Part shown: piece by piece, positions 3,388 through 28,087 of the stretch
Numbering within the stretch: position 1 is the first letter of the stretch
How the letters are laid out: each line of letters begins with the position of its first letter
Assembly: GCA_963844965.1 (NCBI GenBank)
Contig: CAWJQC010000007.1
Span: 64,001 to 128,000, forward strand
Source: an uncultured bacterium
GTDB lineage: Bacteria > Patescibacteriota > Minisyncoccia > UBA6257 > 2-01-FULL-56-20
Length of the DNA: 64,000 nt
Direction: 5' to 3'
Program-made: the position numbers and the translations under genes
Notes under the pieces: generated by a model
Told to the model about the DNA's origin: nothing
What the model saw: the letters and a program-made list of their open reading frames with translations, nothing else
Database searches by the model: none

Positions 3388-4638
3388 ATGAAAGAGAGCA
3401 AGAAGCAGCGCCATATTCAGAAGAAGAAGGAGAAGCCCCAAGAAATCTTGGCGAATATAAAAGTGGTCGGCATTGGCGGCGGAGGGGGAAATGCGGTGGC
3501 GCGCATGAGCAAGAACTTCATCCGCGGAGTTGAATTTGTTGCCATCAATACCGACCATCAGGACCTTGACCGGTGCAGCGTGCGCAGGAAAATTTATATC
3601 GGTAAAAATCTCACGAAAGGATTGGGCACCGGCATGAATCCGGACCTCGGGAGGCAGGCGGCGGAAGAGAATAAGTCGGAGATTGCGGAGGCGCTCGCAG
3701 GCGCGGATATGGTTTTTGTGGCGGCGGGGTTGGGCGGCGGAACCGGTTCCGGCGGAGCGCCGGTCATTGCCGAGGTCGCGAAGCACAGCGGAGCGCTCAC
3801 GATTGCCGTTGTCACGAAACCCTTCGCTTTTGAAGGAGCCCAGCGCGACAGGATCGCCCGCGAGGGCCTCGTGAAGCTGAAGGACAAGGTGGACGCCATA
3901 ATCGTGGTTCCGAACGATAGGATTTTCAGTATCATCAGCAAGGATACGCCGATCATGAAGGCCTTTGACGCAATTGACGACGTTCTGAGGAACGCGCTCC
4001 GCGGCATTGTTGAGCTGATTGTTTCTCCGGGGATAATCAACGTTGACTTCGCCGATGTCAAAACGATAGTTCAGGACGCCGGCGCCGCCGTTATCGGGGT
4101 CGGGATTGGGTCTGGTGCTGACAGGGCCGCGAGCGCCGTCAATCTGGCGCTAAGCTCGCCGCTCGTTGAGGCGACTGCCGAAGGCGCGAAAGCGGTGCTT
4201 TTGGGAATTTCCGGCGGGCGCGATTTGAAAATGAACGAGATAAATGAGGCGGCAAAAGTTGTCGCTCAGGTAGTAGATCCGGGCGCGCGCATAATATTCG
4301 GTGCGTATCACGATAAGAACTTGCGGCCGAACCAGGTCAAGGTCACTTTGATCGCTACCGGTTTTAACGGCAATCAGCCAAGCTCCCTTTTTCCCGGCGG
4401 CCAGTCGGGCGAGAAACATCCGGGTTATGGCGTGGAGTCGGCGCATGGCGACGACAAATCCAAAACCGGCATTGCTGATGCGAGAAAGACACAAGTTTTC
4501 AAATCTAAGCAGGAAAGCGGCGCGGTGCAGGCCGTTGCTGATAAAAGAAGAGACGATAATTTTCCGCAGAAAACCGAGGCGGCAAAAAGCGACAGCGACT
4601 GGGACTTCCCGACGTTTTTGAGAAAAAAGAAAAAATAA
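3388..4638 (+). CDS. ftsZ: Cell division GTPase FtsZ
   Basis: Tubulin signature GGGTGSG and VVGIGGGGGNAV, followed by a C-terminal low-complexity tail. Confidence 0.95.
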   Translation: MKESKKQRHIQKKKEKPQEILANIKVVGIGGGGGNAVARMSKNFIRGVEFVAINTDHQDLDRCSVRRKIYIGKNLTKGLGTGMNPDLGRQAAEENKSEIAEALAGADMVFVAAGLGGGTGSGGAPVIAEVAKHSGALTIAVVTKPFAFEGAQRDRIAREGLVKLKDKVDAIIVVPNDRIFSIISKDTPIMKAFDAIDDVLRNALRGIVELIVSPGIINVDFADVKTIVQDAGAAVIGVGIGSGADRAASAVNLALSSPLVEATAEGAKAVLLGISGGRDLKMNEINEAAKVVAQVVDPGARIIFGAYHDKNLRPNQVKVTLIATGFNGNQPSSLFPGGQSGEKHPGYGVESAHGDDKSKTGIADARKTQVFKSKQESGAVQAVADKRRDDNFPQKTEAAKSDSDWDFPTFLRKKKK

Positions 4639-8895: not shown

Positions 8896-10575
8896 CTATT
8901 TTCCGGCATTGAGCGCCGCCCGTGTCGCAGGGCCAACGTTGCCAAGTGGCTCAATGCCGTTGAGTGTTTGATATTTCTCAACAGCCGTTTCCGTGAGGGA
9001 GCCATAGTATCCCGTGATTGGTCCTGAATATATTCCTTCAGTAGTAAGCCGCTGTTGAAGTTCCGTGACATCCTGACCTGTGGAGCCGAGTGTCAGCGGA
9101 TTGAGGAATTTGTAAGTGGTAGCGGCGCTGTTGCTTTGCTGGGCTTGGGTTTGCAGTTGTGCAAGCTGGGTCTGCAATGCCTGAATTTGAGCTGTTAACG
9201 CGCTTGTGCCCGAAGCTTGAATTGTCGCGGTTGCTCCTGTCTGAACGGTGAATGGGGAAATAAAGAGCTGATTGCTGGTATTCCCGGAATAGTCGGTGAC
9301 CGTAATAGAGCAATTACTGTGTGTTCCGTCAGCCAAACTGTTAAAAATTATGTTATTCGTGCCAGCAATGGCGTTCGCCACAGAACCTGAGCAGTCCCCG
9401 CCGTAACGTATGATGCCGGCAACGTTTGAGACGAAGCCATAGCTTGGGTTTGCCGTCGTAACCACGCTTGGCACCGAAGTTACCACATAAATGAACGGCG
9501 CTGAGGAGTTAGTGTTGATTGTCCTCACCACGTCATAACCGGAAATGGGATAACTTGTGTTGCCGTTCTCGTCTGTCACCGTCACGCCGGTTATCTGAAG
9601 CGGTGTGGATTGGTTGGCTTGGCCACCTGCAACGATATAAGTGGCCGTGTATGTCGCTCCGCCGTCATTTGTATACCAAGAAAGGAGAACGCCATTGTAA
9701 TAGCCGGTTACTTTCGCGTTGGGCAGCGCCGTCCCGAGATGCAGGGTGAAGATGATTGAACCTCCCACGCTCAACACGCCTGCCGTCGTGGCGTCAGACG
9801 TGATATAACCGCTTATGGCCGCTGACGAATTCGTGCTGCCATAGATGTTTACCGTTGCCCGCCCGGAATTTCCTTGGGCATCCGTGAAGGAAACAATGAC
9901 GGGAATGGTTCCTTCCTGATCACCGCTTACTAATGTGTAGTTTACCGTGTACGGGCCGGAACCATTCCCGTTCACCGCGATCGTGTGGCCTAAAATGGTT
10001 ACGGTCGGATTCACCACGGTCTCGTTCGTGGTGAACGAAATTGTTACCATACTGCCGACGGTAGAGAAGGCGTTGTTTATATTATTGAAGTTTGCGGAAA
10101 ATGACTGAAGGATGGGCACGACGGCGCTTGTGACCTGAAATGTTCCGCCGGAGAAATAAGTTGTGTCGCTTATGCCGTAAACACCGCTGCCGATGTAGAG
10201 GTAGCCGGTCGCGCCAGGCTGGAACGGCGTGCCGTTGAAGGTAAGGGTGATGGTGTTCGTGCCGCTGCCGTTCACCGACATCAAAGCGGCTCCGGAAAGT
10301 GACCCCGTGAAGCCGCTGTAATCGCCGGGACTTGTAGCCACCGGCTCCGACCACAGAAGCGTTATCGTATTGGTACTTGTCACTTTCGCGCTTATAAGCG
10401 ACGGTCCCGCCGCGTAGACCGGATAGATGGGGGCGCTTAGCGCGATAATGCCCATGGCAAGGAAAATACTTAAGAAGGTGGACTTGTTTTTACTTGAAAC
10501 CATATTTGTTGTGTTTTTATTTTTAGTAATGGACTTTTTTTTGCAATCGTTCGACCAAACCCGCCGGAATTTCAA
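8896..10575 (-). CDS. Large secreted surface protein with a C-terminal peptidoglycan-binding domain
   Basis: Signal peptide, T/S/G-rich Ig-like repeats, and a C-terminal PG_binding_1-like segment (GSTGQDVTELQQRL...GPATRAALN). Confidence 0.7.
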   Translation of the reverse strand: MKFRRVWSNDCKKKSITKNKNTTNMVSSKNKSTFLSIFLAMGIIALSAPIYPVYAAGPSLISAKVTSTNTITLLWSEPVATSPGDYSGFTGSLSGAALMSVNGSGTNTITLTFNGTPFQPGATGYLYIGSGVYGISDTTYFSGGTFQVTSAVVPILQSFSANFNNINNAFSTVGSMVTISFTTNETVVNPTVTILGHTIAVNGNGSGPYTVNYTLVSGDQEGTIPVIVSFTDAQGNSGRATVNIYGSTNSSAAISGYITSDATTAGVLSVGGSIIFTLHLGTALPNAKVTGYYNGVLLSWYTNDGGATYTATYIVAGGQANQSTPLQITGVTVTDENGNTSYPISGYDVVRTINTNSSAPFIYVVTSVPSVVTTANPSYGFVSNVAGIIRYGGDCSGSVANAIAGTNNIIFNSLADGTHSNCSITVTDYSGNTSNQLFISPFTVQTGATATIQASGTSALTAQIQALQTQLAQLQTQAQQSNSAATTYKFLNPLTLGSTGQDVTELQQRLTTEGIYSGPITGYYGSLTETAVEKYQTLNGIEPLGNVGPATRAALNAGK

Positions 10576-10599
10576 ATAAATTGGGCGGGCAAACGATTT

Positions 10600-11838
10600 T
10601 TATTCATATCTCAGGGCCTCTATGGGATTGAGGCCGGCCGCGCGGCGGGCGGGATAATATCCGAAAACGATTCCCGTTAGCGCCGACACGCCTACGGCCA
10701 GGAAGACCGACCACCAAGAAACGCTCGTGGTAATGCTTGCGAATCTGGTTATCAGGAATGAAACTATCCAGCCGAGTATCACCCCCACAATGCCGCCGAC
10801 AAACGTGAGCATCACGGATTCCAGCAAAAACTGTATGCTTATGTCCCTTTTTTTCGCGCCAATTGCTTTGCGCAGCCCTATTTCCCTCGTCCTTTCGGTC
10901 ACGGTCGTGAGCATCATGTTCATGATCCCTATGCCGCCGACGATAAGTGAAATTCCGGCGATGGAAGCGAGAAGCATGGTGAACGTATTCGTAACGCTTG
11001 AGGCCGTGGCGACAATGTCCGATTGAGTTTGAACGGTGAAATCCGCTTGCGAAGAATCGGAAATGTTATGCCTGCCCAAAAGCAGATCGGTGATCTCGTT
11101 CTGCACTTGTGAAATTGAATTCTGGTCTTGCGCCTGGACGTCTACTTCGGAAACGTAGGACGTGCTTCCCAAAAGATAATGTTGGCCCGTTGTAAGCGGG
11201 ACATAGATGACGTTGTCCTGATTGCCGAATCCGGTGCCGCCTTTGGATACAGTGACGCCGACAACCTTGAAGTTAATGCTTTTTATCCTGATGGTATTTC
11301 CGATCGCCTCGTCCGGAGTAGCGGTGGCATTTACGCCAAAGAGGTCTTGCAGGACCGTAGGACCAATAACCGCAATCTTGTCGGATTTTGTCACGTCCGC
11401 ATCCGTGATAAAAGCGCCCTGATCGATTGCCACGTTGCGTACTTGTGTATACGCCGGGACAGTTCCCACAACGCTTGTGTTGGTGTTCGCACCCTTGTAG
11501 ATAACTTGGTATCTGCCGCTGATTTGGGAGCCGTCGCTTCCACGCCGCTCAGCCCTGCGATCGCGTCTGCGTCGTCCGGCGTCAAGGTTTGCGCGCTTCC
11601 TTGCCCTGCCCGCACACCGTAGCCCAAAGTTCTTTGTTGCCCCGGAGTTACCATTAGAAGATTTGATCCAATTGATTGGATTCGCGCGGTGATCGAATCC
11701 TTGCGCACCTTGGCCGATGGAAACCATGGCGATGACGGAGCCGATGCCGATTACGATGCCCAATATTGTGAGGCCCGACCGCACCTTGTTCACCGTTATG
11801 GCGGACGAGGCCTCGTGAAATAGTTCGGAGATGATCAT
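10600..11838 (-). pseudogene. MacB/FtsX-family ABC transporter permease with two apparent compensating frameshifts (near 11700 and 11515)
   Basis: Frame A encodes TM1 and then an implausible R-rich stretch. Frame B over the same ~190 bp encodes the conserved periplasmic segment ITARIQSIGSNLLMVTPG...LTPDDADAIAGLSGV. Frame A resumes with canonical MacB sequence and a C-terminal FtsX domain. Confidence 0.65.
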
Positions 11839-12580: not shown

Positions 12581-14278
12581 CTATGAGTATCCCGCCCCCT
12601 CCCCCAAGACCCGGAAGTCTGGTTCCCCTCCGCCCGTAGTAGCTTGCGAAGTGCCAGAAGTTATGGTTTGCGTAACGACGGCGTCTCCTTCGTTCAGGCC
12701 TGAAACTATTTCCGTCATCGTGTCGTTCGATAGGCCGACGGTTACCTCCTGTTGTTTCGGCTTACCGTCTGACCCTAGGACGCTCACATGCGAAGTTCCT
12801 TGTTTTGTCGTAACGGCAGAATTTGGCACAAGAAGCACGCCTGATTTTACGTTTGTGATAATGTTAACCGTGTCGCTCATGCTGGGTTTTACGTCCGAAG
12901 TGGAATTGTCCAGCACGATTTGCACGCCGTAGCTCACAACTCCCTGAGATACGGTTCCTACCGGATCAACCTCCGAAACTTTTCCAGTAAAGGTAACGTC
13001 CGGCAGTGCGTCAAGCGTTATTGTGGTCTCCTGCCCGACTTTTACGTTGACTATGTCGGTCTCGTTGAATGTCGCCTGCGCGAATTTCTGGTCGGAAACG
13101 ATTGTTGCGACGGCGCCGCTTGCCGTATCGCCGACTTTCACGCTGACCGAAGCAATGGTGCCGTCAAACGGTGCAACGATCGTGTAGTAACTCAAATCAT
13201 TTTGCAGGTCAACAAGATTTTGCTCCTCGGTTATAAGATTGTTATTAGCGATCTGAAGGCTTATTGGATTGTCGCCGTTGGGATTGCCGACCTGGAGTAG
13301 CGCGATGTTCTGCTTGTCGGCTGTAATCGTCTGCTTGTCTGTATCGATCGTGTTTTTCTGGGACAAGAGAGCGCTCAGGTCGTTATTCACCGTCGACAAA
13401 TAGTTCCGCGTATTTGTCTGCAGCGTATTTACCGCCGTCGGGAGGTAACGATTATACTGAGTCGCGAGATCGTTCGCCGCCCCAAGTAGATTCAACTCGT
13501 CCTGTAATGTTTGCGCAACGTCAGTCGCCATATCAATCGATTGTTCAAGTATGGTTTCAATCTGGTCGCCGCTCGAATTCCGACTTAATTGTTTATAGGC
13601 AATAACGCTCGGGTCATATTCTGCAGTCGCGGTCGCGTAGCTACTTTTTGCGCTGTCTGCAAGTGTTTCCATTGTTGATGTGGTTTTGTCGCTGAATAAG
13701 TTGATAAGTGTGTCTACGTTCCACTGGCTGGCCTTCGGGTTGATGTCTGTGCCATAGAGGACGTCTTGCATGCCGGTCATGACGTTTGGCAGGTCCAAGT
13801 AGGTGTTCGATAGCGTGTTGAACGCATCGTTATATTGGGTTTGCAAATTATCTTGATCGGTGGTGAGGGTATCAAGCGCTTTTTGGTAATCGATCGGGGC
13901 CTGAGCCGTACTTTGCTGGAGTTGGAGCTTTGCTGTTACGAGGGATTGCTTTGCGTTTGCAACTGCCTGTTGCGCATCGGTGTCATCCATCTTCATTATC
14001 GCCTGATTGGCTTTGACCTTGTCGCCCGCGCTTACCCCTATCCACGTTATCTCTCCGGCAACCTGCGCTTTTATGTCAATTTGGTACAAGGCCGCGATCT
14101 GCCCGCTGCCCGAAACAGAAACGACAAGCGTTCCTTTCTGGGCCTTAGTTGTGACGTATTGCAACTTAGTGGAAGTGCCACCTCTGATTGCGCCGTAGGC
14201 GTAGTAGGCGGCGATAATGATAACGATTGCTGCTATAACGAGAAATTTTTTATTTGTTAATATCTTTTTCATGTTCAA
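12581..14278 (-). CDS. HlyD/MacA-family periplasmic adaptor (membrane fusion protein)
   Basis: N-terminal transmembrane segment, biotin-lipoyl-like halves flanking a long coiled coil, and a C-terminal beta-barrel. It lies upstream of the ABC ATPase and permease in one operon. Confidence 0.75.
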   Translation of the reverse strand: MNMKKILTNKKFLVIAAIVIIIAAYYAYGAIRGGTSTKLQYVTTKAQKGTLVVSVSGSGQIAALYQIDIKAQVAGEITWIGVSAGDKVKANQAIMKMDDTDAQQAVANAKQSLVTAKLQLQQSTAQAPIDYQKALDTLTTDQDNLQTQYNDAFNTLSNTYLDLPNVMTGMQDVLYGTDINPKASQWNVDTLINLFSDKTTSTMETLADSAKSSYATATAEYDPSVIAYKQLSRNSSGDQIETILEQSIDMATDVAQTLQDELNLLGAANDLATQYNRYLPTAVNTLQTNTRNYLSTVNNDLSALLSQKNTIDTDKQTITADKQNIALLQVGNPNGDNPISLQIANNNLITEEQNLVDLQNDLSYYTIVAPFDGTIASVSVKVGDTASGAVATIVSDQKFAQATFNETDIVNVKVGQETTITLDALPDVTFTGKVSEVDPVGTVSQGVVSYGVQIVLDNSTSDVKPSMSDTVNIITNVKSGVLLVPNSAVTTKQGTSHVSVLGSDGKPKQQEVTVGLSNDTMTEIVSGLNEGDAVVTQTITSGTSQATTGGGEPDFRVLGEGAGYS

Positions 14279-16690: not shown

Positions 16691-19208
16691 ATGCGCAAAC
16701 AAGATGTTCTCGGGATAAGTTTGAGCGGGCTTTTTGGCGAATTGAGATCGTCCGAGAACGGTCTCACCGAAGAAGAAGCCGCCAAACGTTTTCGCGAGCA
16801 CGGTCCGAATATTCTCAAAAAAGAAGGCGTTAGCGCGCTCGGAGTTTTGCTTCGCCAATTCCAAAGCTCACTGATTTATCTTCTTGTCGCGGCGAGCGCG
16901 ATATCTTTTTGGATTAGGGATTATTCGGATGGGACGATTATCGCCGTTATTCTCCTCGTCAACGCCTCCCTGGGATTTTTTCAGGAATATAGATCGGAAA
17001 AGATCGTTGAGAAACTTTCAAAGTTTATCAGCCACCAAGTTCGCCTCAGGAGAAGCGGGCAGATTGTGTTATTGGACGAATCACGGATTGTTGTCGGAGA
17101 CGTGCTTGTCGTTCGCGAAGGCGATATTGTTCCGGCGGACATGCGGCTGTTTGAAGCCGACAATCTGGAAGTGAACGAGTCGCAGCTTACGGGCGAGTCG
17201 GTGCCGGTCGTTAAGCGTGTCTCAAATGATATCGCCAAAAATCCCGACTGCCTCGTTTTCACTGGCAGCGTCATTGAGAAAGGTGAGGGCGTTGGGATTG
17301 TCTATGCGATCGGCAACGACACGGAATTGGGAACTATCGCCAGGTTGTCAACGGAAACAAAGAAAGAAACGCAGTATGAGAAATCACTGCGGTCATTCAG
17401 TTCTTCTTTGATGAAAGTTGTTCTCCTCGGCTTGGCCCTGGTTTTCGCGCTCAAGTTGATTTTGAACGGAGGATTTTCAAACGCAGCGGGTCTTTTGCTT
17501 TTTATCATAGCCATGGCCGTTGCCGTGGTGCCCGAAGTTCTGCCGGTTATCGCCACGGTTACCTTGTCAAACGGAGCATTGAAACTCGCCAAAAGGCATG
17601 TGGTAGTTAAACGCCTGTCGTCGCTGGAGGATCTCGGCAATGTGGATTTGCTGTGCGCCGATAAGACAGGGACCATCACCGAAAACAGAATGGTCATAAA
17701 CAAAATTGTTTCCGCCGATGATAAATTGTTTCAGGAGCTTGCCTACGCCGCCATTACGCCCCTGAAAGGCAGAAAGAGAAGGATGCAGAATTCGTATGAC
17801 GACGCGTTCAACCGATATGTTTCCGACGCCGTGAGGAAAGAGGCGGTGAATTTCAGAGATCTTGAAAGAACTTCCTTTTGACCCGTATGACAGGAGAAGC
17901 CGGGTGGTGCTTGAGGATGCGGCGCACGGAAAACACTTTCTGCTTTCAATCGGCGCCCCCGAAGCGGTCTTTGAAATTAGCGGGAGCGAGCAAAAAGCGA
18001 AATATCTGGAAGACATCGCCGCGGAAGGCAGAAAAGGCCTGCATCATCTGGCGATAGCGTACAAGGAAGTATCATATGCTAACGATTTTGATATTTTGAA
18101 AAACGAACGCGATTTGAAATTCCTCGGATATGTGAGTTTAGAAGATCCGTTGCGGCCTACGGCCAAGAATACCGTTTACCTTGCCGAAAAACTTGGCATA
18201 AAAATCAAAATCCTGACGGGAGACAGCAAAGAGGTCGCCGAGTATGTCGGAAAGCAAATAGGGTTGGTGAAAGAGGGAGATAAAGAGGAAGATAAGGTGT
18301 ATCTCGGCGGCGAACTTGAGAAAATGTCGGAGGACGAATTCAGGACAGCCGTTCGGAGATGCAATGTGTTCGCCAGAGTTTCTCCGACCGATAAATACAA
18401 TATTATAAGGGCTCTCAAGGAAACTAATGTCGTCGGCTACGAGGGAGACGGCATCAATGACGCTCCGGCGCTGAAACTGGCGGACGTGGCGATCGCGGTC
18501 AACTCGGCCACGGACATCGCCAAGGAAAATTCCGACATTGTTCTTCTCAACAAAAGCCTTGAGGTCGTTATCAACGGCATAAAATACGGCAGGTCCATAT
18601 TCGTGAATATCAATAAGTATATTAAATACACCATGGTAAATAATTTTGGCACCTTTATTGCACTGGCCGTTTTATACTTGCTGTCTGCCTATTTACCAAT
18701 GCTCCCGATTCAAATACTTTTGACGAATGTGATTACAGACATTCCTCTCGTCACAATTTCGTCCGACACGGTTGAAGATGTAGAAGTAGTGCGGCCGGAA
18801 AAACACAATACGAAAGAACTGGTGTTCATCTCGCTTATTCTGGGAATTCCAACGGCTTTTTTTGAACTTCTCTACTTCTTGATTATCCGCTCACATCCCC
18901 GAGAGTTCGTGGCAACAGGCCTTTACGTCTTCCTTACCTTCTTGGCATTAATTGTTTTCTATGCGATAAGAAACAAAGAAAATTTCTGGAAAACAAAGCA
19001 GCCATCCCGTCTTTTGAACGTCTCTTTTGTGCTCGCTTTTGTCTTCTCGCTCGCGATCATTTATATGCCCCAGTTTCAGGCGTGGTTTTCCTTCGTGCCG
19101 TTGCCCGCGGCGTCGGTGATTGTCATTCTAATTCTGATGGTGCTCTACCTTTTCGCGGTGGATTTCGTCAAGGTGAGGTATTACAAGTTTTCTGCGGGGG
19201 AGAAATGA
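16691..19208 (+). pseudogene. P-type cation-transporting ATPase split by an apparent frameshift near 17855
   Basis: ORF1 (16691-17881) carries TGESVPV and DKTGTIT. ORF2 (17862-19208, TTG start) carries ELPFDPYDRR, GDGINDAPAL and C-terminal transmembrane helices. The two ORFs overlap by 20 nt in different frames. Confidence 0.75.
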
Positions 19209-19388: not shown

Positions 19389-19862
19389 TCAGAACCCCAA
19401 ATGTTTCTTGAAAATGGTGCCGTAGATGTCTCTGCGGGTTATGATGCCGATCAGCTTTTTATTTTCCACCACGGGCAAGCGATGGAGGCCTCGGCCGAGC
19501 ATAAGGCCGCCGGCGCTCAGGATGCAGGCGTCGGCGTCAATCGTGACTACGCGCCTGTTCATATATTTTTCTATCGGCTGCGCGCGAATCTCTTCAATTT
19601 CATCTTCCTGAAGCTCCGGGTCGTGGTACACGTAAGGTTCCCGTGCGTAGTTCTCGTAGGACGGGAACATTGCCCGGAAGAGATCTTTCTCCGAAACAAT
19701 GCCGATGAGATTCCCCGCGTCGTCCACCACTGGCATGCCACTGATTTTGTGCTTATGAAGAAGCGCCGCCGTCTCCTCGTAGCTTGTCTTCGGCGAGACC
19801 GTGACGACAGGCGCAATCATTACTTCACGCACCTTCATGCAGTTTATCGTAGCGCTTGCCAC
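19389..19862 (-). CDS. CBS-domain pair protein
   Basis: Two CBS motifs. The likely true start is the internal MKVREVM at about 19838. Confidence 0.8.
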   Translation of the reverse strand: MASATINCMKVREVMIAPVVTVSPKTSYEETAALLHKHKISGMPVVDDAGNLIGIVSEKDLFRAMFPSYENYAREPYVYHDPELQEDEIEEIRAQPIEKYMNRRVVTIDADACILSAGGLMLGRGLHRLPVVENKKLIGIITRRDIYGTIFKKHLGF

Positions 19863-19969
19863 GCAAAAGGGAAGTCACAGTTTGTGCACCGATTTCCTTA
19901 CACAAAATTAAAAAATATTGCTTGCTATGACAACAGGAATCGAACCTAAAATTGGAAGCCCCCGATATC

Positions 19970-20030
19970 CAGAGGCTATTATAAGTGTCCTTTCAGATAG
20001 AAATTATATGGAAAATCTGCATTTTAAATT
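19970..20030 (+). repeat. Copy 1 of a ~65-bp direct repeat (CCAGARGCTATTATAAGTGTC...AATTATATGGAAAATCTG...)
   Basis: About 85% identical to the copy at 22484-22545. Preceded 20 nt upstream by a tRNA T-arm-like motif (GGTTCGATTCC on the minus strand). Confidence 0.7.
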
Positions 20031-20296
20031 CTGTTTCATAAAGGCGTTACAACGCTCAGAAACGGCACATTAACGGCGGCAAGAAATTATTATAACAAAG
20101 GACCTCTTCTTGCGCGGCATAGTAGACGACGCTAGAGCCGTCATCCAGCGATAAAATGAGTATATTTACATCCCAAATTTGAGGGCAGAAGCAATGAGGG
20201 TATAATTTCACCTACTGCATTATTCACTATTTCTCTTGCCATAATATCCTGCGCTTGACACCTGTTTTTAATTTTTGGAAGGGATATAATTATATT

Positions 20297-20572
20297 ATGA
20301 ATAAAAAATTACTAATAAGCGTCTTAGGTGTCTTCGTGTTATTAATTTTAGGCCTAGCCGGTTATTATTTGTGGTTTTATAAAAAACCAATGTCTCCTAC
20401 CGCCGAACAAGCGGTTACGGATATTCAAAAAACGGTTCAGTCTATTGATCAGAATGTAGCCGGGAGTGTTTTCGGCACCACAACGGCTAATCCAATGGAG
20501 AATGTCCCCGATGTTAATCCCTATAAAAATACCAACCCATTTTCAGATATTAAAACCAATCCTTTTCAATAA
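20297..20572 (+). CDS. Small signal-anchored protein with a C-terminal NPY/NPF-repeat tail
   Basis: Begins MNKKLLISVLGVFVLLILGLAGYYLW, a transmembrane anchor. A TATAAT box lies 7 nt upstream. Confidence 0.55.
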   Translation: MNKKLLISVLGVFVLLILGLAGYYLWFYKKPMSPTAEQAVTDIQKTVQSIDQNVAGSVFGTTTANPMENVPDVNPYKNTNPFSDIKTNPFQ

Positions 20573-20577
20573 AAACT

Positions 20578-22263
20578 ATGAATAAAAAAACTTTAAGCGT
20601 ATTGATACTAATTTCTTCAGTAATGATCTCCGGTGTTATTGTCGGTTCGGCGATGGCGCAGACCCCGGCCGATCAAAGTACGACAACTTTATCCGCAAGT
20701 ATCACGTATCCGATTCCGGAATTGGGCAATTGTCAAAGTCAGGCGGATTGTAAAACCTTTTGCGACGATACCAAGAATACCGATGCCTGTTTGGCTTTTG
20801 CCCAAGCCAATAATTTAATGAGTTCCGACCAAGTGGCTGCCGCTAAAAAATTTGCGGATAGCGGAATGGTTGGTCCGGGCGGATGCAAGGGAGAAACCGA
20901 ATGCGACACGTATTGCGGCGATACGAGCCACATAGAAGAGTGTATTACGTTTGCGCAAAATAACGGATTGATGTCCGAACAAAAGCTACAGGAATCGCAA
21001 AAGGTTTTGGCAGCCATTAAAACAGGTGTCAAACCTTTGGGCTGCAATAGTGAGCAGGAATGTGAAGCATATTGTGCGACCGCTGAACATATGGAGGAGT
21101 GCATAAATTTCGGCACCGAGGCAGGAATATTGCCGGCTCAGGATCAGGAGAATGCGCGCAAAGTTTTGACCGCTATAAAAAATGGTGCCGTGCCTCCGTG
21201 CGAAGGTGATGCGTGTCCGGCTTTTTGCAGCAAACCGCAGAACGCGGATGCTTGCGAGAAGTTCCGTATCGAGGCTGGAATTCCGTCACGCTCCGAAATG
21301 ATAGTAGTTCAGGCAATACTTACTCTTATAGCAAAAGGAACTACTATGTCTACTTGCAGCGGTGCGCAAGGATGCCAGGATTATTGTTCTCAAGATGCCC
21401 ATGCTGAAGAATGCGCTAAATTTGCCGAGGATAATGGGGCGATTACGTCTTCAGAGGCAGAAGCAGCTATAGGCGGAGAAGCAGCGCCCGAAGGACCGGG
21501 TGGATGTAAGACTAAAGACGAGTGCGATGCTTATTGCAATAATCCGGATAATTCCGAAACTTGCTTTAATTATGCCAAGGATAACGGACTGATTTCCTCG
21601 GAAGACCTAAAGAAAATAGAAGATAGCCAGCAGCAAATGAAAGATTCTTTTAATAATATGCCCGCAGAGATATTAACCTGTTTAACTACTTCTTTAGGCG
21701 CAGACACGGTTGAAAAATTAAAAAGCGGAAACGCTATACCAGATCAGAAAACGGCCGAACAAATGAAGACTTGTTTTGACCAATACACTCCAACCGCTCC
21801 AACCGCTCCGGCTGGTCCGGGGAGTCAAGCCGGACAAAATCAGGGCGGACAAGGACAGGGTGGCGGAGGAGGTGGCAACGGTGGTGGTAGCGGCGGAGGT
21901 AGTGGCGGGGGAGGACAGGGCCAAGGTAACCAACCAACCCAACCTACTCAACCGAGCCAACCTATGCAACCAACCCAACCTACTCAACCGGGCCAGCCGA
22001 CTCAGCCCAGCCAACCATCACAGCTACTACCTCAGACGGGCCCCGGTGGATGCAAAACCATCGAAGAATGTAAGACGTATTGCCAGGCGCATCCGGAAGC
22101 TAAAACAGAGTGTCAGCAATTTAAGCAGAGTCAACAGGGACAATCTGGACAGAATCAGCCGACGCAAGGCCCGAATAATCAACAACCCAGTCAACCCAGC
22201 CAGCCGACTCCACCGCAACCTCCGACTCAGCCTACTCCACCAAGTCAACCAAGCCCGCCATAA
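20578..22263 (+). CDS. Secreted cysteine-rich repeat protein with a G-rich and (PTQ)n-rich C-terminal tail
   Basis: Signal peptide followed by at least six ~40-aa repeats of the pattern GGCKxxxECDxYCx6-8CxxFAxxNGLxS. Then a GGGGGNGGGSGGGSGGGG stretch and PTQPTQPSQP repeats. Confidence 0.8.
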   Translation: MNKKTLSVLILISSVMISGVIVGSAMAQTPADQSTTTLSASITYPIPELGNCQSQADCKTFCDDTKNTDACLAFAQANNLMSSDQVAAAKKFADSGMVGPGGCKGETECDTYCGDTSHIEECITFAQNNGLMSEQKLQESQKVLAAIKTGVKPLGCNSEQECEAYCATAEHMEECINFGTEAGILPAQDQENARKVLTAIKNGAVPPCEGDACPAFCSKPQNADACEKFRIEAGIPSRSEMIVVQAILTLIAKGTTMSTCSGAQGCQDYCSQDAHAEECAKFAEDNGAITSSEAEAAIGGEAAPEGPGGCKTKDECDAYCNNPDNSETCFNYAKDNGLISSEDLKKIEDSQQQMKDSFNNMPAEILTCLTTSLGADTVEKLKSGNAIPDQKTAEQMKTCFDQYTPTAPTAPAGPGSQAGQNQGGQGQGGGGGGNGGGSGGGSGGGGQGQGNQPTQPTQPSQPMQPTQPTQPGQPTQPSQPSQLLPQTGPGGCKTIEECKTYCQAHPEAKTECQQFKQSQQGQSGQNQPTQGPNNQQPSQPSQPTPPQPPTQPTPPSQPSPP

Positions 22264-22483
22264 CAACCAACTCCACCACAACTGCCGACTCCGCCAAGCA
22301 GTTTCTTGCGACAAACGCAGAAGTTTTTAGGGAGCATCTTGGATGTATTCACGAGGTAAGGATTTTTGCAATAAAATAGATTGTTATTCCTCCCGGCCCT
22401 CTCCTTCGGTTCGAATCCAGACTGTCAAAACGAGAAATAAAAATGAACGGCGCAAGACCGTTCATTTTTATTTTAGCTCCAGG

Positions 22484-22545
22484 TTCCAGAAGCTATTATA
22501 AGTGTCTTATCGGATAGGAATTATATGGAAAATCTGTATTCCAAG
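22484..22545 (+). repeat. Copy 2 of the ~65-bp direct repeat
   Basis: Aligns with 19970-20030. It lies 43 bp from the IS3 copy A end and is preceded by a bidirectional hairpin terminator (22437-22470) and a T-arm-like GGTTCGAATCCAG motif. Confidence 0.7.
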
Positions 22546-22644
22546 TTTTACATTTTGAGGGAGATGGAGCGGTTGGAAATATCTAAATGTAAAGGATAGG
22601 TTTCTTTAGACAGTGATTCGACGGCTTTTTGCCGTTTTTTTTCG

Positions 22645-23427
22645 TTAAGCCGCAATCTTCTCGGCAAACACGGACGGCGGCATCTTGAGGGCGGAGTGGA
22701 TCCGCGTGTGGTTGTACTGCCACAAGGTGCTGTAGATCTCCGCCACGAGCTCGCCGAAGGTCCCGAACCGGTTGGGATCACCGAGGTCAATCTTGAACTT
22801 GTCATAGAACGATTCCTGGTAGCCGTTTTCCCATGGGGCACCGGGCCGCGACCGCGAGATCGTGATGCCACAGTCCCCCAGTGTATCGGTGAACGCTCGT
22901 GCCTTGTACTCGCTGCCGTTGTCCGAATGGAAGATGACCGGATGCGGATGGTGGAAAAGCGCGTTGGCCAGGGTCTGTATCGTGAGGGGCGATCCTTTCC
23001 GCAACGCCACATGGACGCCCATCAATCGTCTCGTGAAAAGATCGAGTATCGTGGACACGTACACTTTCTTGCCGCGATACAGGAACTCCGTGAAATCGGT
23101 TGCCCAGACGTGGTTCGCGTACGAGGGCATGATGGCAAGTAAGAGGTTCGGAAAGGCCCGCGATGCCTTTGATTTCCGGTATTTCCTGCCTCGCCTCCGG
23201 TACGGCCTTATGCCGAAGATTCGCATGACGCGCTGCGCTCGCGGACGGCTCACGCCCAGAGCTTGTCCCAAGCGCCGGGAACCGTATGCCGGATGGCGCT
23301 GCAATTCTTCTTCCATGCGGATCTTGAGCGCCCAATCTTTCTTGTCCTGCCGTGATACGTAGTAGAGCGATGCCCGCGAGACGCCCATGGCCCGCGCCAT
23401 GGCGGACTTGTTCCGCTTTTCCGTCAA
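22645..23427 (-). CDS. IS3-family transposase OrfB (DDE integrase, rve domain)
   Basis: HSDNGSEYKARAF...PGAPWENGYQESFY rve-type DDE motif. Confidence 0.9.
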   Translation of the reverse strand: MTEKRNKSAMARAMGVSRASLYYVSRQDKKDWALKIRMEEELQRHPAYGSRRLGQALGVSRPRAQRVMRIFGIRPYRRRGRKYRKSKASRAFPNLLLAIMPSYANHVWATDFTEFLYRGKKVYVSTILDLFTRRLMGVHVALRKGSPLTIQTLANALFHHPHPVIFHSDNGSEYKARAFTDTLGDCGITISRSRPGAPWENGYQESFYDKFKIDLGDPNRFGTFGELVAEIYSTLWQYNHTRIHSALKMPPSVFAEKIAA

Positions 23428-23687
23428 TTCTTTTTTTGGGCCTGGGAGAGCTTCACGGTGAGCTCGCCCACCACTTCAAACAGCTCCCTGTTCTGCTTCT
23501 GGAGACGGCTGAACTCGCCCCAGGAAGGGACGCCCGATGCTCCTGCGCCTAGCCAATTGTAGATGGTGGACTCGTGCAAACCGTGGTCCTTCGCAGCCTG
23601 CGCTACGGGGACTCCTTCTTCCTTCACCCGGCGGAGGATGTCCGCCTTCACTTCCTTCGCAATCCGATGCCCTTTTTTGTTGCTCAT
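23424..23687 (-). CDS. IS3-family transposase OrfA (HTH)
   Basis: HTH segment VPVAQAAKDHGLHESTIYNWL. The ORF ends at an A AAA AAG slippery site that overlaps the start of orfB. Confidence 0.85.
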   Translation of the reverse strand: MSNKKGHRIAKEVKADILRRVKEEGVPVAQAAKDHGLHESTIYNWLGAGASGVPSWGEFSRLQKQNRELFEVVGELTVKLSQAQKKN

Positions 23688-23741
23688 GACACAATGGTAG
23701 TTTGTTTCGACCTTTGTGTCTAAATTATCCTATCCGGGTCA

Positions 23742-23773
23742 ACCTTTGTGTCTAAATTATCCTATCCGGGTCA
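23742..23773. repeat. 32-bp tandem duplication of the IS3 left terminal repeat
   Basis: CCTTTGTGTCTAAATTATCCTATCCGGGTCA occurs twice in tandem at 23711-23741 and 23743-23773. Confidence 0.8.
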
Positions 23774-23777
23774 AGTG

Positions 23778-23951
23778 ATGGTTGATTTAAGTAAGCTCTA
23801 TCCCGATATTGATATTGCCGAAACGCTCTCGAACCTAACGGGAAAATGGATCAAGACAATCAAGGGCAATAAGGTTGAATTTTCTGATGGTAGCGAGATA
23901 GATACAAGCGATATGGATTACAAACTTATTAAGCCATTGATTTGGTGGTAA
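23778..23951 (+). CDS. 57-aa ORF whose N-terminus resembles that of the downstream helicase (possible 5' duplicate fragment)
   Basis: MVDLSKLYPDIDIAETL...GKW versus MSKLYLQDIVEDIPFDDLPAKW in the next gene. It overlaps that gene's start by 10 nt. Confidence 0.35.
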   Translation: MVDLSKLYPDIDIAETLSNLTGKWIKTIKGNKVEFSDGSEIDTSDMDYKLIKPLIWW

Positions 23952-23953
23952 AT

Positions 23954-26650
23954 ATGTCGAAGTTGTATTTACAAGACATAGTTGAGGACATCCCGTTTGA
24001 TGATCTGCCCGCGAAATGGCAGGACTTTGACTTCGGCAGGTTTTCTTCCGATAAAACACTATTTGGCTTCCAGCAAAATGGCTTACGGAACGCTCTGAAA
24101 GCGCTCTGGCTTTTTTATAAAGATAGGAAGGGAAACAAAATAGAGCTTTATGAACAATATAAGGCAAATGGCTTGGGCGCGGATTTTGATTATGATTTGA
24201 CGCGAGAAAGAAAAGCCGCTGACCATCTTTTGGAATTTGATACGGATTATCCGAAAACAGACGGCAAAATTGCTTTTGCCCACTTCTTAAACCGCATGAG
24301 CTTTTGGATGGCTACGGGCTCTGGAAAGACGCTGATTATCGTAAAACTCATTGATATGCTCGGCGCTTTAATGAGGCAAAAAGAGATTCCTCAAAACGAT
24401 ATTCTGTTCTTGGCTCATAGGGACGACCTTTTGGAACAATTCAAAAATCATGTGGATCAATTCAATAGCTTCAATTTTGAAACAAGAATCAACTTCAAGA
24501 GCTTGAAAGATTATGAGAGCGTCAAGCGCGAGAACGCTCTGCCATTTGCAAAAAACGAGATAACGGTATTCTACTACCGCTCGGATTTAATATCAGACGA
24601 GCACAAAGAAAAAATTGTCAATTTCAAAAATTATGATAACGGCGGCAAGTGGTATGTTCTTCTCGATGAGGCGCACAAAGGCGATAGAGAGGACAGCAAA
24701 AGACAGATTCTATATTCAATCCTTTCAAGAAGCGGCTTTCTGTTCAATTTTTCCGCTACCTTTACCGATCCGCGGGATTACGCAACCTGTGCCTTTAATT
24801 TCAATCTTTCAAAATTCATTGAGGATGGTTACGGCAAGCATATTTATGTATCAAGCGCGGAAGTAACGGCTTTCCGCGATCAAGACGACTTCTCAAAAAT
24901 TACGAAGCAGAAAATCGTTTTGAAAACGCTGATACTGCTTACATATATCAATAAGTATTTTGAGAAGGTTCGGAAACAGGATAAAAAGCTGTATCATCGC
25001 CCACTCCTTCTTACTCTCGTCAATTCCGTTGATACGAAAGATGCGGACTTAAAGCTGTTCTTTTCCGAACTGGAAAAGATAGCCAAAAATGAAATAAGAG
25101 GCGACTTGATTGAAAAAGCCAAAGAGGAACTCATAAAAGAATTTGAAGAAAATCCGCAATATGAATTTGAGGGCATAAATGTAGAGATTGATAAGGCCTC
25201 GCTCAAAAAAATCTGCTATAAGGATATTTTGAAGCAGATTTTCAACGCAAAATCTTCTGGTAATATCGAGGTTTTGAAAATTCCGAATAACAGAAACGAA
25301 ATAATCTTTAAGCTGCAAACTTCTGAAAAACCATTCGGGCTGATTAAGATCGGGGATATTTCGGGATGGCTTAAGGAAACGCTTGAGGGTTATGAAATAA
25401 TCGAGAGCTTTGAGAATGAAAGCGTATTTAAGCGGATCAACCACGATGACTCCGAAATTAACATTCTGATGGGCTCCCGTGCCTTTTACGAGGGCTGGGA
25501 CTCAAACAGGCCGAACATTCTCTTATTCGTAAATATCGGCATCGGAAGCGACGCAAAGAAGTTTGTCCTGCAATCCGTTGGCCGAGGCGTAAGAATTGAA
25601 CCGCAAAAGAATAAACGGAAAAGAATTTTGGAATTGCACAACGCAAAAGAAATAAAGACAGAGCTATTTAATAAAATCCGAAGCAATATACAAGCGCTTG
25701 AGAGCTTGTTCGTATTCGGAACAAACGCCGATAATCTGAAGGAAATAATCAAGGCGCTGAAAGAAGAAAAACAAGAGCAAGATTTAGGTGCCGAATTTAT
25801 TATAAATAAAGATGCTGAAAAACGGCTGTTGCTTATACCTACTTACCGAGAATCGGAAAAGATATTTGCCGAAGAAAAAGAGCCGCAGAAATACGGAATC
25901 AGCCGAGAGGACTTGGCACTCGCAAAATCAATGTTCAGCTATCTTGGCGATAAAGTAACTCTGGCAAAATTTGAGTGTGAAGTAAGGGTTATTAAAAAGA
26001 CAGCCGAGAGTTTTGAAACAGCCGAGCAATACTTTGACCTTAACGAGGAGAGGTCAATTTCCGAGCCAGATTTGCTGGTTGATAGGATACTGGACTACTT
26101 CAGCGTCAGGGATAAAGAATTTGATAAATTCAAAAAACTGGAAAACGAGATCGTCCACTTCAAGCGGATAAGGTTTAATGACGGCGAGAAGTTTGAAGAA
26201 ATAAAACAGAAAATCGGCAAAATAAAGGAGTATCCAGAAAGACAGCGAGAACTGGATAAACAATACGGAAAAATATCGCGGGAAGAATTTGCGAGAAAGC
26301 AGGCGAGTTTGTTTGACGCGCAGACCTTTGAATACAAGAGCAAAAAGCTAAAAATCAAATATATCCAAAACCATTACTACATTCCTCTGATTATTTCAGA
26401 AAATGAAAAAGTTGATTATCTCAACCACATTATTGATGTTGAAAGCGAAGTCCGTTTCATAGAACAATTGGAAGAATACCTACAGCAGGACGACAATGTA
26501 TTCAAACAATTTGATTGGTGGATGTTCTCAAAGCTCGATCAAACGCTGGACGAAGTTCATGTGCCGTATTACAGCCCAAAAGAAAACAATATGGCAAGGT
26601 TTAAGCCCGACTTTATCTTCTGGCTGCAAAAGGTGACCCGGATAGGATAA
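23954..26650 (+). CDS. SF2 helicase / Type III restriction Res-like protein (DEAH box), C-terminally truncated by IS3 copy B
   Basis: Motif I MATGSGKT, motif II LLDEAHKG, and motif VI QSVGRGVR. The C-terminus ...FKPDFIFWLQK runs 17 nt into the IS terminal repeat and stops (KVTRIG*), as if the PD-(D/E)xK nuclease motif were cut off. Confidence 0.7.
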   Translation: MSKLYLQDIVEDIPFDDLPAKWQDFDFGRFSSDKTLFGFQQNGLRNALKALWLFYKDRKGNKIELYEQYKANGLGADFDYDLTRERKAADHLLEFDTDYPKTDGKIAFAHFLNRMSFWMATGSGKTLIIVKLIDMLGALMRQKEIPQNDILFLAHRDDLLEQFKNHVDQFNSFNFETRINFKSLKDYESVKRENALPFAKNEITVFYYRSDLISDEHKEKIVNFKNYDNGGKWYVLLDEAHKGDREDSKRQILYSILSRSGFLFNFSATFTDPRDYATCAFNFNLSKFIEDGYGKHIYVSSAEVTAFRDQDDFSKITKQKIVLKTLILLTYINKYFEKVRKQDKKLYHRPLLLTLVNSVDTKDADLKLFFSELEKIAKNEIRGDLIEKAKEELIKEFEENPQYEFEGINVEIDKASLKKICYKDILKQIFNAKSSGNIEVLKIPNNRNEIIFKLQTSEKPFGLIKIGDISGWLKETLEGYEIIESFENESVFKRINHDDSEINILMGSRAFYEGWDSNRPNILLFVNIGIGSDAKKFVLQSVGRGVRIEPQKNKRKRILELHNAKEIKTELFNKIRSNIQALESLFVFGTNADNLKEIIKALKEEKQEQDLGAEFIINKDAEKRLLLIPTYRESEKIFAEEKEPQKYGISREDLALAKSMFSYLGDKVTLAKFECEVRVIKKTAESFETAEQYFDLNEERSISEPDLLVDRILDYFSVRDKEFDKFKKLENEIVHFKRIRFNDGEKFEEIKQKIGKIKEYPERQRELDKQYGKISREEFARKQASLFDAQTFEYKSKKLKIKYIQNHYYIPLIISENEKVDYLNHIIDVESEVRFIEQLEEYLQQDDNVFKQFDWWMFSKLDQTLDEVHVPYYSPKENNMARFKPDFIFWLQKVTRIG

Positions 26651-26687
26651 TTTAGACACAAAGGTCGAAACAAACTACCATTGTGTC

Positions 26688-26951
26688 ATGAGCAACAAAA
26701 AAGGGCATCGGATTGCGAAGGAAGTGAAGGCGGACATCCTCCGCCGGGTGAAGGAAGAAGGAGTCCCCGTAGCGCAGGCTGCGAAGGACCACGGTTTGCA
26801 CGAGTCCACCATCTACAATTGGCTAGGCGCAGGAGCATCGGGCGTCCCTTCCTGGGGCGAGTTCAGCCGTCTCCAGAAGCAGAACAGGGAGCTGTTTGAA
26901 GTGGTGGGCGAGCTCACCGTGAAGCTCTCCCAGGCCCAAAAAAAGAATTGA
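26688..26951 (+). CDS. IS3-family transposase OrfA (HTH)
   Basis: Identical to the product of 23424-23687. Confidence 0.85.
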   Translation: MSNKKGHRIAKEVKADILRRVKEEGVPVAQAAKDHGLHESTIYNWLGAGASGVPSWGEFSRLQKQNRELFEVVGELTVKLSQAQKKN

Positions 26952-27730
26952 CGGAAAAGCGGAACAAGTCCGCCATGGCGCGGGCCATGGGCGTCTCGCG
27001 GGCATCGCTCTACTACGTATCACGGCAGGACAAGAAAGATTGGGCGCTCAAGATCCGCATGGAAGAAGAATTGCAGCGCCATCCGGCATACGGTTCCCGG
27101 CGCTTGGGACAAGCTCTGGGCGTGAGCCGTCCGCGAGCGCAGCGCGTCATGCGAATCTTCGGCATAAGGCCGTACCGGAGGCGAGGCAGGAAATACCGGA
27201 AATCAAAGGCATCGCGGGCCTTTCCGAACCTCTTACTTGCCATCATGCCCTCGTACGCGAACCACGTCTGGGCAACCGATTTCACGGAGTTCCTGTATCG
27301 CGGCAAGAAAGTGTACGTGTCCACGATACTCGATCTTTTCACGAGACGATTGATGGGCGTCCATGTGGCGTTGCGGAAAGGATCGCCCCTCACGATACAG
27401 ACCCTGGCCAACGCGCTTTTCCACCATCCGCATCCGGTCATCTTCCATTCGGACAACGGCAGCGAGTACAAGGCACGAGCGTTCACCGATACACTGGGGG
27501 ACTGTGGCATCACGATCTCGCGGTCGCGGCCCGGTGCCCCATGGGAAAACGGCTACCAGGAATCGTTCTATGACAAGTTCAAGATTGACCTCGGTGATCC
27601 CAACCGGTTCGGGACCTTCGGCGAGCTCGTGGCGGAGATCTACAGCACCTTGTGGCAGTACAACCACACGCGGATCCACTCCGCCCTCAAGATGCCGCCG
27701 TCCGTGTTTGCCGAGAAGATTGCGGCTTAA
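26948..27730 (+). CDS. IS3-family transposase OrfB (DDE)
   Basis: Identical to the product of 22645-23427. Probably expressed as an OrfAB fusion through a -1 frameshift. Confidence 0.9.
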   Translation: MTEKRNKSAMARAMGVSRASLYYVSRQDKKDWALKIRMEEELQRHPAYGSRRLGQALGVSRPRAQRVMRIFGIRPYRRRGRKYRKSKASRAFPNLLLAIMPSYANHVWATDFTEFLYRGKKVYVSTILDLFTRRLMGVHVALRKGSPLTIQTLANALFHHPHPVIFHSDNGSEYKARAFTDTLGDCGITISRSRPGAPWENGYQESFYDKFKIDLGDPNRFGTFGELVAEIYSTLWQYNHTRIHSALKMPPSVFAEKIAA

Positions 27731-27861
27731 CGAAAAAAAACGGCAAAAAGCCGTCGAATCACTGTCTAAAGAAACCTATCCTTTACATCGGGCAAAAAGT
27801 TAGAGTTTACAATGCGAAAACCGTTTGATGCGGTCCTCGAATTGGCTACTTGTCCAACTGG

Positions 27862-27933
27862 GCTCCGGCGCCTGGATTCGAACCAGGAACCTTCTCCTTA
27901 ACAGGGAGCCGCTCTACCGTTGAGCTACGCCGG
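27862..27933 (-). tRNA. tRNA-Asn (GTT anticodon)
   Basis: Cloverleaf with acceptor TCCGGCG/CGCCGGA, D-arm GCTC-AACGGTA-GAGC, anticodon loop CTGTTAA, and T-arm CCTGG-TTCGAAT-CCAGG. The first base is U1, as in E. coli tRNA-Asn. CCA is not encoded. Confidence 0.8.
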
Positions 27934-28087
27934 AATCCTTATTCTTATTAATGTATCAAAAAAACAGATTTTTTTCAATCTCGCCAGCCGCAATGCTGCG
28001 AGATCATACTTTAATGTTGAAAAAAAAGAAAAAAGCCGAGTGGTTGGAAAAGTTAGGAAAGGCGGCGTAAAAATTAAAACGTCCCGG

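Follow-up and report, generated by a model that had tools for sequence, protein, structure and literature searches.

An intact tRNA gene with an insertion at its 3' end is the classic pattern of the tRNA island, as set out in the description of the Islander catalogue (PMC4383910). In the present study a direct repeat of 63 nucleotides (nt), the small gene to which it belongs and a neighbouring tRNA-Asn gene were analysed in a stretch of 64,000 nt from an uncultured member of the Patescibacteriota (GenBank assembly GCA_963844965.1, contig CAWJQC010000007.1, positions 64,001 to 128,000), hereafter called the window, in whose coordinates positions are given unless another sequence is named. The two copies of the repeat lie on either side of an operon for a small secreted and a cysteine-rich secreted protein, and the second stands beside an insertion sequence (IS) of the IS3 family. 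Some mobile elements create or restore a gene or a transcript across their attachment site attP, as in the joint transcripts of the circular form of Tn916 and in regulatory switches of phages. Diversity-generating retroelements (DGR) are common in Patescibacteria. To our knowledge, recognisable integrases are scarce in this group, and gene gain and loss in its very small genomes is little understood.

The locus resembles the islands at tRNA and transfer-messenger RNA (tmRNA) genes catalogued in Islander in several aspects: an intact tRNA stands at one end and the insertion lies exactly at its 3' end, both junctions show a short direct repeat, a restriction system forms a foreign, GC-poor cargo, tRNA 3' ends are repeated in tandem in a relative (L017), and removal of the inserted segment restores a locus of tRNA plus terminator. 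It differs in that no tyrosine or serine integrase was found in or near the island in the window, that the repeat measures 5 bp and not the 15-50 bp of a displaced tRNA fragment, and that the junction splits an incoming small gene, here called A-B, whose B half recurs as a conserved marker. With Tn916-type joined ends it shares an open reading frame (ORF) that is intact only when the ends are joined and split when integrated; unlike there, A-B is known from sequence alone, and many copies that consist of B only have their own start codon and may work alone. Like the template and variable repeats of a DGR, the two direct repeats measure about 100 bp, are 85-90% identical and include one that lies 3'-terminally in an ORF. 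However, the mismatches (G/A, C/T, T/A, A/G, A/G, C/T, TT/CC and A/G) are not adenine-specific, which led us to reject a DGR, and no reverse transcriptase was found among the window ORFs screened.

We regard it as probable, judging from the comparisons below, that both copies of the repeat are B modules of the A-B gene which mark recombination junctions at tRNA-Asn, and that the locus is an island array. From left to right it comprises a CBS-domain gene (- strand), a T-arm-like motif that may be a relic, GCCCC followed by module B1, a promoter-like site, the genes for the small secreted and the cysteine-rich protein, a terminator, GCTCC followed by module B2, an IS, a restriction remnant, a second IS, module A, GCTCC and tRNA-Asn. 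The features that concern the repeat itself are as follows.

19927..20073, + strand: ORF1, an intact member of the B-module family with 48 amino acids (MTTGIEPKIGSPRYPEAIISVLSDRNYMENLHFKFCFIKALQRSETAH), present as a gene call in the source record (P0236) and with family matches
19958..19962, + strand: GCCCC, taken to stand where the core GCTCC precedes B at other loci (compare L011, where GCTCCCCGAT is followed by CCAGAG)
19968..20030, + strand: repeat copy 1, which spans the 5' two-thirds of module B1, its best-conserved part
20082..20096, + strand: second copy of the B-start motif (AGAAATTATTATAAC), just past the stop of ORF1
22477..22587, + strand: module B2 (LQVPEAIISVLSDRNYMENLYSKFYILREMERLEISK), devoid of a start codon, with an in-frame TAG at 22474-22476
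22485..22547, + strand: repeat copy 2, within module B2

The original prediction, which was made from the letters of the window, had described a pair of direct repeats of about 65 bp with some 85% identity. The pair is real, with coordinates off by 1-3 nt: 19968-20030 and 22485-22547 align without gaps over 63 nt and are identical at 54 of them (86%), the first 56 nt reaching 89%. An nhmmer profile built from both copies retrieved them with E 4e-18 and 8e-19 and nothing else in the 64 kb of the window, the runner-up having E of about 5. Scans with the repeat as an exact pattern gave zero matches in genome and metagenome contig collections, in which the source contig itself is not included. On the left the repeat ends sharply, flanking identity being random (21-26%), and rightward identity fades to 46% over 39 nt (p ~0.003), up to the end of the IS.

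By its codon pattern the repeat is to be read as two paralogous copies of a coding module of about 100 bp, module B, and not as a pair of regulatory elements of the cysteine-rich operon. Only one of the six frames, on the + strand, is open in both copies, and within a shared peptide of 17 residues (PEAIISVLSDRNYMENL) all five nucleotide differences, spread over four codons, are synonymous; in simulations five random substitutions left the peptide unchanged with a frequency of about 2e-4. Past this stretch the two proteins differ conservatively, which accounts for the apparent decay of the DNA similarity, and ORF1 finds copy 2 by tblastn with E = 2e-10. A profile from both peptides, scored against 1.84 billion representative proteins at a cut-off of E <= 1e-3, gave 25 matches. 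Two of them exceed 1,000 amino acids and match in several short stretches; these were not looked at. All others are ORFs of 36-143 amino acids with the B segment of about 34 residues at or near the C-terminus and with unrelated N-termini. For tests of codon pattern, 14 B loci were gathered as DNA from metagenomes. Entropy by codon position in the conserved half was 0.38, 0.21 and 0.82 bits, a periodicity of three bases, synonymous differences were 2-5 times commoner in the coding frame than in the other two frames, and the stop codon lay 34 codons past a conserved proline in 9/14 loci. It is exactly at this usual stop position of the family that B2 is truncated by the IS. An open frame, synonymous bias, three-base periodicity and homologues elsewhere, the signs of a family of small ORFs, were thus found together.

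AlphaFold2 modelled B confidently as a hairpin of helix, turn and long helix (pLDDT, the per-residue confidence score, 82-93). The family had no match in Pfam, no significant one in NCBIfam or among PDB sequences, and no fold match in PDB. A single weak NCBIfam match to ClpS (E = 0.12) was dismissed, since neither Pfam nor the alignment supported it, and an antitoxin of the Phd/YefM or ribbon-helix-helix type, guessed from the residue pattern, found no support from Pfam, PDB sequences or folds, the model being all-helical.

The two window copies are mosaics. Over the 51 nt of their 5' halves they are each other's closest relatives (90%, against 65-84% to the other loci), whereas the 3' halves belong to different subfamilies, with a mutual identity of 52% and with B2 at 60-69% to L007-L011; this suggests an exchange within the conserved 5' part. 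The B-start motif is repeated just past the stop in 8/14 loci by eye, copy 1 included, and in five by pattern scan. A degenerate module A past B1 was considered as well and did not reach significance (p = 0.05-0.4), only the B-start motif of 15 nt being significant there. Inside that motif two isoleucine codons read ATT ATA in 13/14 loci, and their fixation hints at an additional constraint on the DNA, perhaps as a recombination or binding site.

That B is the second half of a longer gene became apparent from two homologues. In P0243 (68 amino acids) and P0248 (88 amino acids) a conserved module A directly precedes B, e.g. GKKLAFTMRKPFDVVLELAECPNGL, and weaker A-like segments occur in P0247, P0253 and P0256. 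The window holds one copy of A, immediately right of the second IS copy, and its surroundings and the left junction consist of the following.

22435..22473, both strands: bidirectional intrinsic terminator with a stem of 17 bp, which ends the cysteine-rich operon
22476..22480, + strand: GCTCC, left copy of the junction repeat (attL-like)
27788..27865, + strand: module A (SGKKLEFTMRKPFDAVLELATCPTGL), the N-terminal half of the small A-B gene, whose first seven or so codons are gone; it abuts tRNA-Asn
27862..27866, + strand: GCTCC, right copy of the junction repeat (attR-like), overlapping the last 4 nt of tRNA-Asn
27859..27935, - strand: intact tRNA-Asn (GTT), the insertion target (68 bits in Rfam)

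Joined, A and B2 of the window give 62 amino acids that align with P0243 without gaps (70% identity over 57 amino acids, E = 1e-30) and with P0248 at 40%. As DNA, the two joined pieces match L007 with 73% identity right across the junction, which reads TGGGCTCC-AGGT-TCCAGAAG in the window and TGGGCTCC-CCGT-CCCAGAAG in L007. As A and B2 are colinear with an intact homologue, the window holds one A-B gene in circularly permuted order: B2, 5.2 kb of other DNA, then A; the frame of B2 continues into A once the whole IS composite is removed. At the left junction the terminator hairpin is followed by TTTTA, GCTCC and B2, and at the right one A is followed by GCTCC and GGCGCCTGGATTCGAACC, which is tRNA-Asn in antisense. 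Of the 3' segment of the tRNA only GCTCC (5 bp) is shared with the far end in the window. Deletion of 22481-27866 leaves tRNA-Asn on the - strand and, 5 nt on, the terminator with its 17-bp stem, a natural arrangement and, to judge from the sequence, a plausible empty site; the joined ends of the deleted segment make a plausible attP.

The 5.2 kb between B2 and A are largely taken up by two IS copies and what they enclose.

22588..23741, - strand: IS3-family copy 1, 1154 bp, with orfA (HTH_Tnp_1), orfB (rve) and TG...CA ends
23775..26633, + strand: remnant of low GC content that comprises an ORF tail and, behind it, a Type III ResIII helicase gene
26634..27787, + strand: IS3-family copy 2, identical to copy 1 (100%) and inverted

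The IS end announced by the original prediction beside the second repeat copy lies at 22588, 40 bp past the repeat and 42-43 bp from the end first given for it. GC content is about 40% between the IS copies and about 50% elsewhere. Copy 1 cuts the ORF tail, of which about 58 last codons are left; these match no family and presumably belong to a mod gene. Copy 2 cuts off the C-terminus of the ResIII helicase and ends about seven codons into module A. Two identical copies with HTH_Tnp_1, rve and TG...CA ends around a segment of 2.9 kb are reminiscent of IS3-family composites. Unlike in these, the copies are inverted and truncate the genes they flank, and no target-site duplications, which measure 3 bp in this family, were found at either copy or around the composite; with domains and ends present and duplications missing, later rearrangement is likely. 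The IS copies explain the damage to copy 2, not the repeat itself. In IS copy 1, but not in copy 2, 32 bp of the IS terminus are duplicated in tandem at the inner end (23710-23773, TCGACCTTTGTGTCTAAATTATCCTATCCGGG, 97%). A related Patescibacteria contig of 804 kb (L003) has two IS of the same family (10570-11612 and 18136-19199; transposase 79% identical), one beside its CBS gene and one immediately upstream of its cysteine-rich cassette.

At other loci B is found at comparable junctions. In 12 of 16 aligned B junctions, among which L018-L020 count as one sequence, the conserved unit starts at GC(T/C)CC, about 5 nt ahead of CCAGA (CCAGAAGYTATTATAAC), with unrelated left flanks; L013, L015 and L016 lack GC(T/C)CC. 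On the 122-kb contig L017, B is separated by 8.4 kb from tRNA-Asn (- strand) on its right. The last 25 nt of this tRNA and the 38 nt downstream form a stretch of 63 nt that recurs at position 12677 with 87% identity; at 10004 the first 48 nt of it are repeated, and at 9008 22 nt from the tRNA 3' end. B stands immediately inside the copy at 10004 (GCTCCGCG directly followed by TTCCAGAAG), so that L017, as far as its sequence tells, looks like a tandem array of islands at tRNA-Asn, one of which has B at its far edge. The 3'-end copies on L017 occupy 9008-9029, 10004-10066, 12677-12739 and 18516-18578, three of the four with downstream flank, and the array carries genes for APH, OTCase, a methyltransferase, NDK and a deaminase, and no integrase. 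In L018 a T-arm-like direct repeat of 37 nt (92%) recurs after 3.8 kb, with B 300 nt inside the left copy, and in L009 B directly follows a bidirectional terminator, as in copy 2 of the window. A solo B unit of about 130 bp in L008 stands between 8-bp direct repeats AGAGCTCC (2361-2368 and 2493-2500) and resembles a minimal insertion.

B codes for the conserved C-terminal 34 or so residues of an uncharacterised family of small proteins in Patescibacteria, with a full-length form A-B of about 60-90 amino acids. According to the explanation we favour, the join of A and B would be the recombination site within the family. DNA bearing A-B would enter at the extreme 3' end of tRNA-Asn with GCTCC as core, leaving A against the tRNA and B at the far end of the insert; B2 and module A (27788-27865) would then be the halves of one such gene, with the IS copies and a decayed restriction system between them. 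This topology would match a circle with A-GCTCC-B that recombined with the 3' end of the tRNA gene, an event we infer to have been site-specific integration. The recombinase presumably acts at the conserved CCAGAAGYTATTATAAC motif and would either work in trans or have been lost. It is quite likely that copy 2 is a junction of the attL type. Copy 1, another 2.5 kb away from the tRNA, probably stems from an older junction and belongs to the same family of markers. If B1 and B2 are both junction modules, the cysteine-rich operon lies between two successive markers of a tandem array at tRNA-Asn. Island arrays linked to a tRNA, decayed and riddled with IS as here, are known structures; what is unusual in this one is the small gene split across the junction and the lack of a recognisable recombinase.

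Several observations weigh against this explanation. No integrase or site-specific recombinase was found in 19.9-27.9 kb or among ten other large ORFs of the window, and Pfam searches with all ORFs in 19.4-28.8 kb recognised only parts of the IS3 transposase (rve, HTH_Tnp_1) and ResIII. Likewise, no recombinase was found within 10 kb of B in L017, nor in L018 over 10 kb upstream and 3.5 kb downstream. The 5-bp junction repeat of the window could be chance microhomology, and since GCTCC codes for part of the conserved (L/S)P residues, an origin from the tRNA is not required. Without the IS composite the insert amounts to about 190 bp, B2 then A, so a rearrangement of a tandem A-B-A-B arrangement fits equally well. 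Intact DNA across the A-B junction was found in one comparator only (L007, 1 kb), and no close relative was seen with an empty site, the nearest CBS-protein homologue found being only 70% identical. Relatives of B were not found in 185,579 GTDB reference genomes or in viral contigs. Proximity to a tRNA is not universal: in L009 and L018 the tRNAs recognised by ARAGORN lie only left of B, at 0.6 kb and 5.8 kb.

The island model also leaves unexplained the two T-arm-like motifs on which the original prediction had partly relied. Both are present as claimed.

19936..19946, - strand: T-arm-like GGTTCGATTCC, inside ORF1, where it codes for GIEP
22408..22418, + strand: T-arm-like GGTTCGAATCC, which extends to a 13-nt reverse-complement match with the T-arm of tRNA-Asn

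The pattern GGTTCGAWTCC has three matches in the window against 0.17 expected, the third being the real tRNA-Asn (27874-27884, - strand); at 19936 and 22408 neither ARAGORN nor Rfam recognised a tRNA. The former motif lies inside an ORF of 48 amino acids and the latter on the strand opposite to it, and they are not att cores, though that at 19936 may be the relic of a displaced tRNA 3' fragment. A tRNA pseudogene or an intron-split tRNA was rejected for want of support from ARAGORN or Infernal; the fragment on the - strand has a Gly-UCC-like loop (CTTCCAA), but this loop lies 8 nt too close to the T-loop. In Patescibacteria, tRNA-Asn genes are known to be split by group I introns (PMC13011429); none was detected here in an Rfam scan of 19700-22700. 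The exact inverted match of 13 nt (CTGGATTCGAACC) joins 22406-22418, just past the terminator, with 27871-27883 in the T-arm of tRNA-Asn, sites that are only about 75 nt apart in the reconstructed empty site.

The operon between the two repeat copies is the subject of a further interpretation and consists of two genes.

20297..20572, + strand: gene for a small secreted protein of 91 amino acids, first in a conserved two-gene cassette
20578..22263, + strand: gene for a cysteine-rich secreted protein of 561 amino acids, of a family widespread in Patescibacteria and with no Pfam match

Homologues of the larger protein number in the hundreds and are annotated as Patescibacteria, Paceibacteria, Nomurabacteria and similar. 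Its gene ends at TAA, past which the frame stays open for another 27 codons (22261-22345, QPTPPQLPTPPSSFLRQTQKFLGSILDVFTR); this TAA is perhaps premature or read through.

Att-like remnants of an integrated element were one of the two options offered by the original prediction, and part of it has stood: copy 2 is a tRNA-linked recombination junction on our favoured reading. The tRNA concerned, however, is the intact tRNA-Asn at 27859-27935 with GCTCC as core, and the segment that can be demonstrated as inserted (22481-27866) lies right of copy 2 and not between the repeats. Taken literally, the option would make the 2.5-kb block of two genes a mobile element or island, with B1 and B2 as attL and attR and excision by recombination between them, which appears somewhat unlikely to us. 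B modules do mark junctions at other loci, the mosaic of a 5' half at 90% (51 nt) and 3' halves at 52% fits a crossover in the 5' half, and the first kilobase of the block has 41% GC. Orthologous cassettes in L001, L002 and L003 stand in other contexts; the CBS-gene neighbourhoods of relatives, which are not syntenic, are uninformative here. In L002 the cassette (70% amino acid identity) is even enclosed by exact 16-nt direct repeats ACGGAGGCGGAAGGAT at 1843-1858 and 4351-4366, a spacing of 2508 nt against 2517 nt in the window, and the 3' end of a tmRNA gene (17-47) lies 1.8 kb upstream of it. A derivation of this 16-nt repeat from the tmRNA 3' end was tried, and the resemblance was too weak to use. 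Yet B2 is preceded only by the terminator of the operon, not by an arm resembling A or a tRNA flank, and this terminator belongs to the cassette, being kept behind it in L001 and L002; the B repeat is absent from the cassette flanks in L001, L002 and L003, and only about 100 bp upstream of the small gene are conserved between L002 and the window. Moreover, B1 is complete with its own stop and the motif past it, like solo B units, a recombinase is missing, and purely synonymous divergence is that of functional genes evolving separately, unlike a duplication made by a single integration. Unlikely, too, is that B1 and B2 are ordinary, immobile paralogues from a local duplication, that the order B2...A arose by IS-mediated or illegitimate rearrangement and that the bracketing is incidental. 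Identical inverted IS copies that cut their neighbour genes and lack target duplications do speak of a rearranged locus, the motifs past B that resemble the start of A suggest tandem A-B-A-B arrays reshuffled by slippage, and the want of an integrase agrees with it. Against it stands that inverted IS copies, when they recombine, cannot bring B and A into permuted order, that the break falls on the same nucleotide, GC(T/C)CC, in the 12 of 16 junctions, that L017 independently joins B to a 3'-end repeat of tRNA-Asn, and that deletion of the segment restores tRNA plus terminator.

The remaining explanations deny the repeat its coding role. It is improbable that the function is non-coding, as a binding site of a recombinase or repressor or as an outward-facing promoter, with the ORF incidental. 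In the family consensus the near-invariant GTTATTATAAC forms a palindrome of 11 bp with TATAAT on the - strand, while the window copies read GCTATTATAAG and are not exact palindromes; two perfect TATAAT boxes on the - strand are kept in both window copies, the first copy facing the CBS gene. The fixed ATT ATA, in a family whose third positions are free elsewhere, and the recurrence of the motif past the stop point the same way. Against this, periodicity, stop position and amino acid conservation at 40-50% nucleotide identity in the 3' half argue for translation, the boxes have no -35 partner and no match in a promoter scan, and the - strand of copy 2 runs directly into the terminator. A signal in the DNA that overlaps a real ORF is possible and would be compatible with the explanation we prefer. 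The other option of the original prediction, a duplicated promoter or leader whose second target gene was replaced by the IS, is hardly to be credited. Both copies do lie upstream of + strand sequence, and the IS follows the second closely, but the repeat is coding and contains no sigma-70 match, a promoter-like site proper to the operon lies at 20179-20206, and the IS stands precisely where B2 is expected to stop and not within a downstream target gene. A structured RNA was rejected as well, with fold z-scores of -0.3 to +1.5 on both strands and no Rfam family above noise in 19700-22700.

Elsewhere in the window, a P-type cation ATPase at 16691-19208 is split into two overlapping ORFs, 16691-17881 with the N-terminal and E1-E2 domains and 17862-19208 with the hydrolase and C-terminal domains, and may be frameshifted or a pseudogene. 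At 49913-50208 three copies of a 49-68-nt repeat containing the palindrome GGTTAACAATTGTTAAC are spaced in tandem at 118-129 nt and look like an operator or iteron. Defence-like or mobile-type genes are a stand-alone N6/N4 DNA methylase (38776-39795) and a RhuM/Fic-domain protein (51142-52107).

For the window, the favoured explanation, an island array at tRNA-Asn, means that the repeats, which are paralogous small ORFs, would at the same time be decayed junction relics. A bolder version, decidedly unlikely though it seems to us, would place the A-B gene at the core of a mobile unit of Patescibacteria that does without an integrase and has tRNA-Asn as its target, with a circle of about 190 bp or larger recombining at GCTCC / CCAGAAGYTATTATAAC. 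Were it true, room for cargo would lie between the B stop and the A start and would here be taken by the restriction system and possibly by the cysteine-rich operon, and a gene that is whole only when excised would act as a split-gene switch, with a host or unrecognised enzyme as recombinase. If B reliably marks the far edge of inserts at tRNA-Asn, islands in Patescibacteria and what they carry could be found by a simple sequence tag, examples being defence systems and those cysteine-rich secreted proteins which may have a role at the interface with the host; and if A-B truly spans a recombination site, these bacteria would possess a recombination system that current annotation misses.

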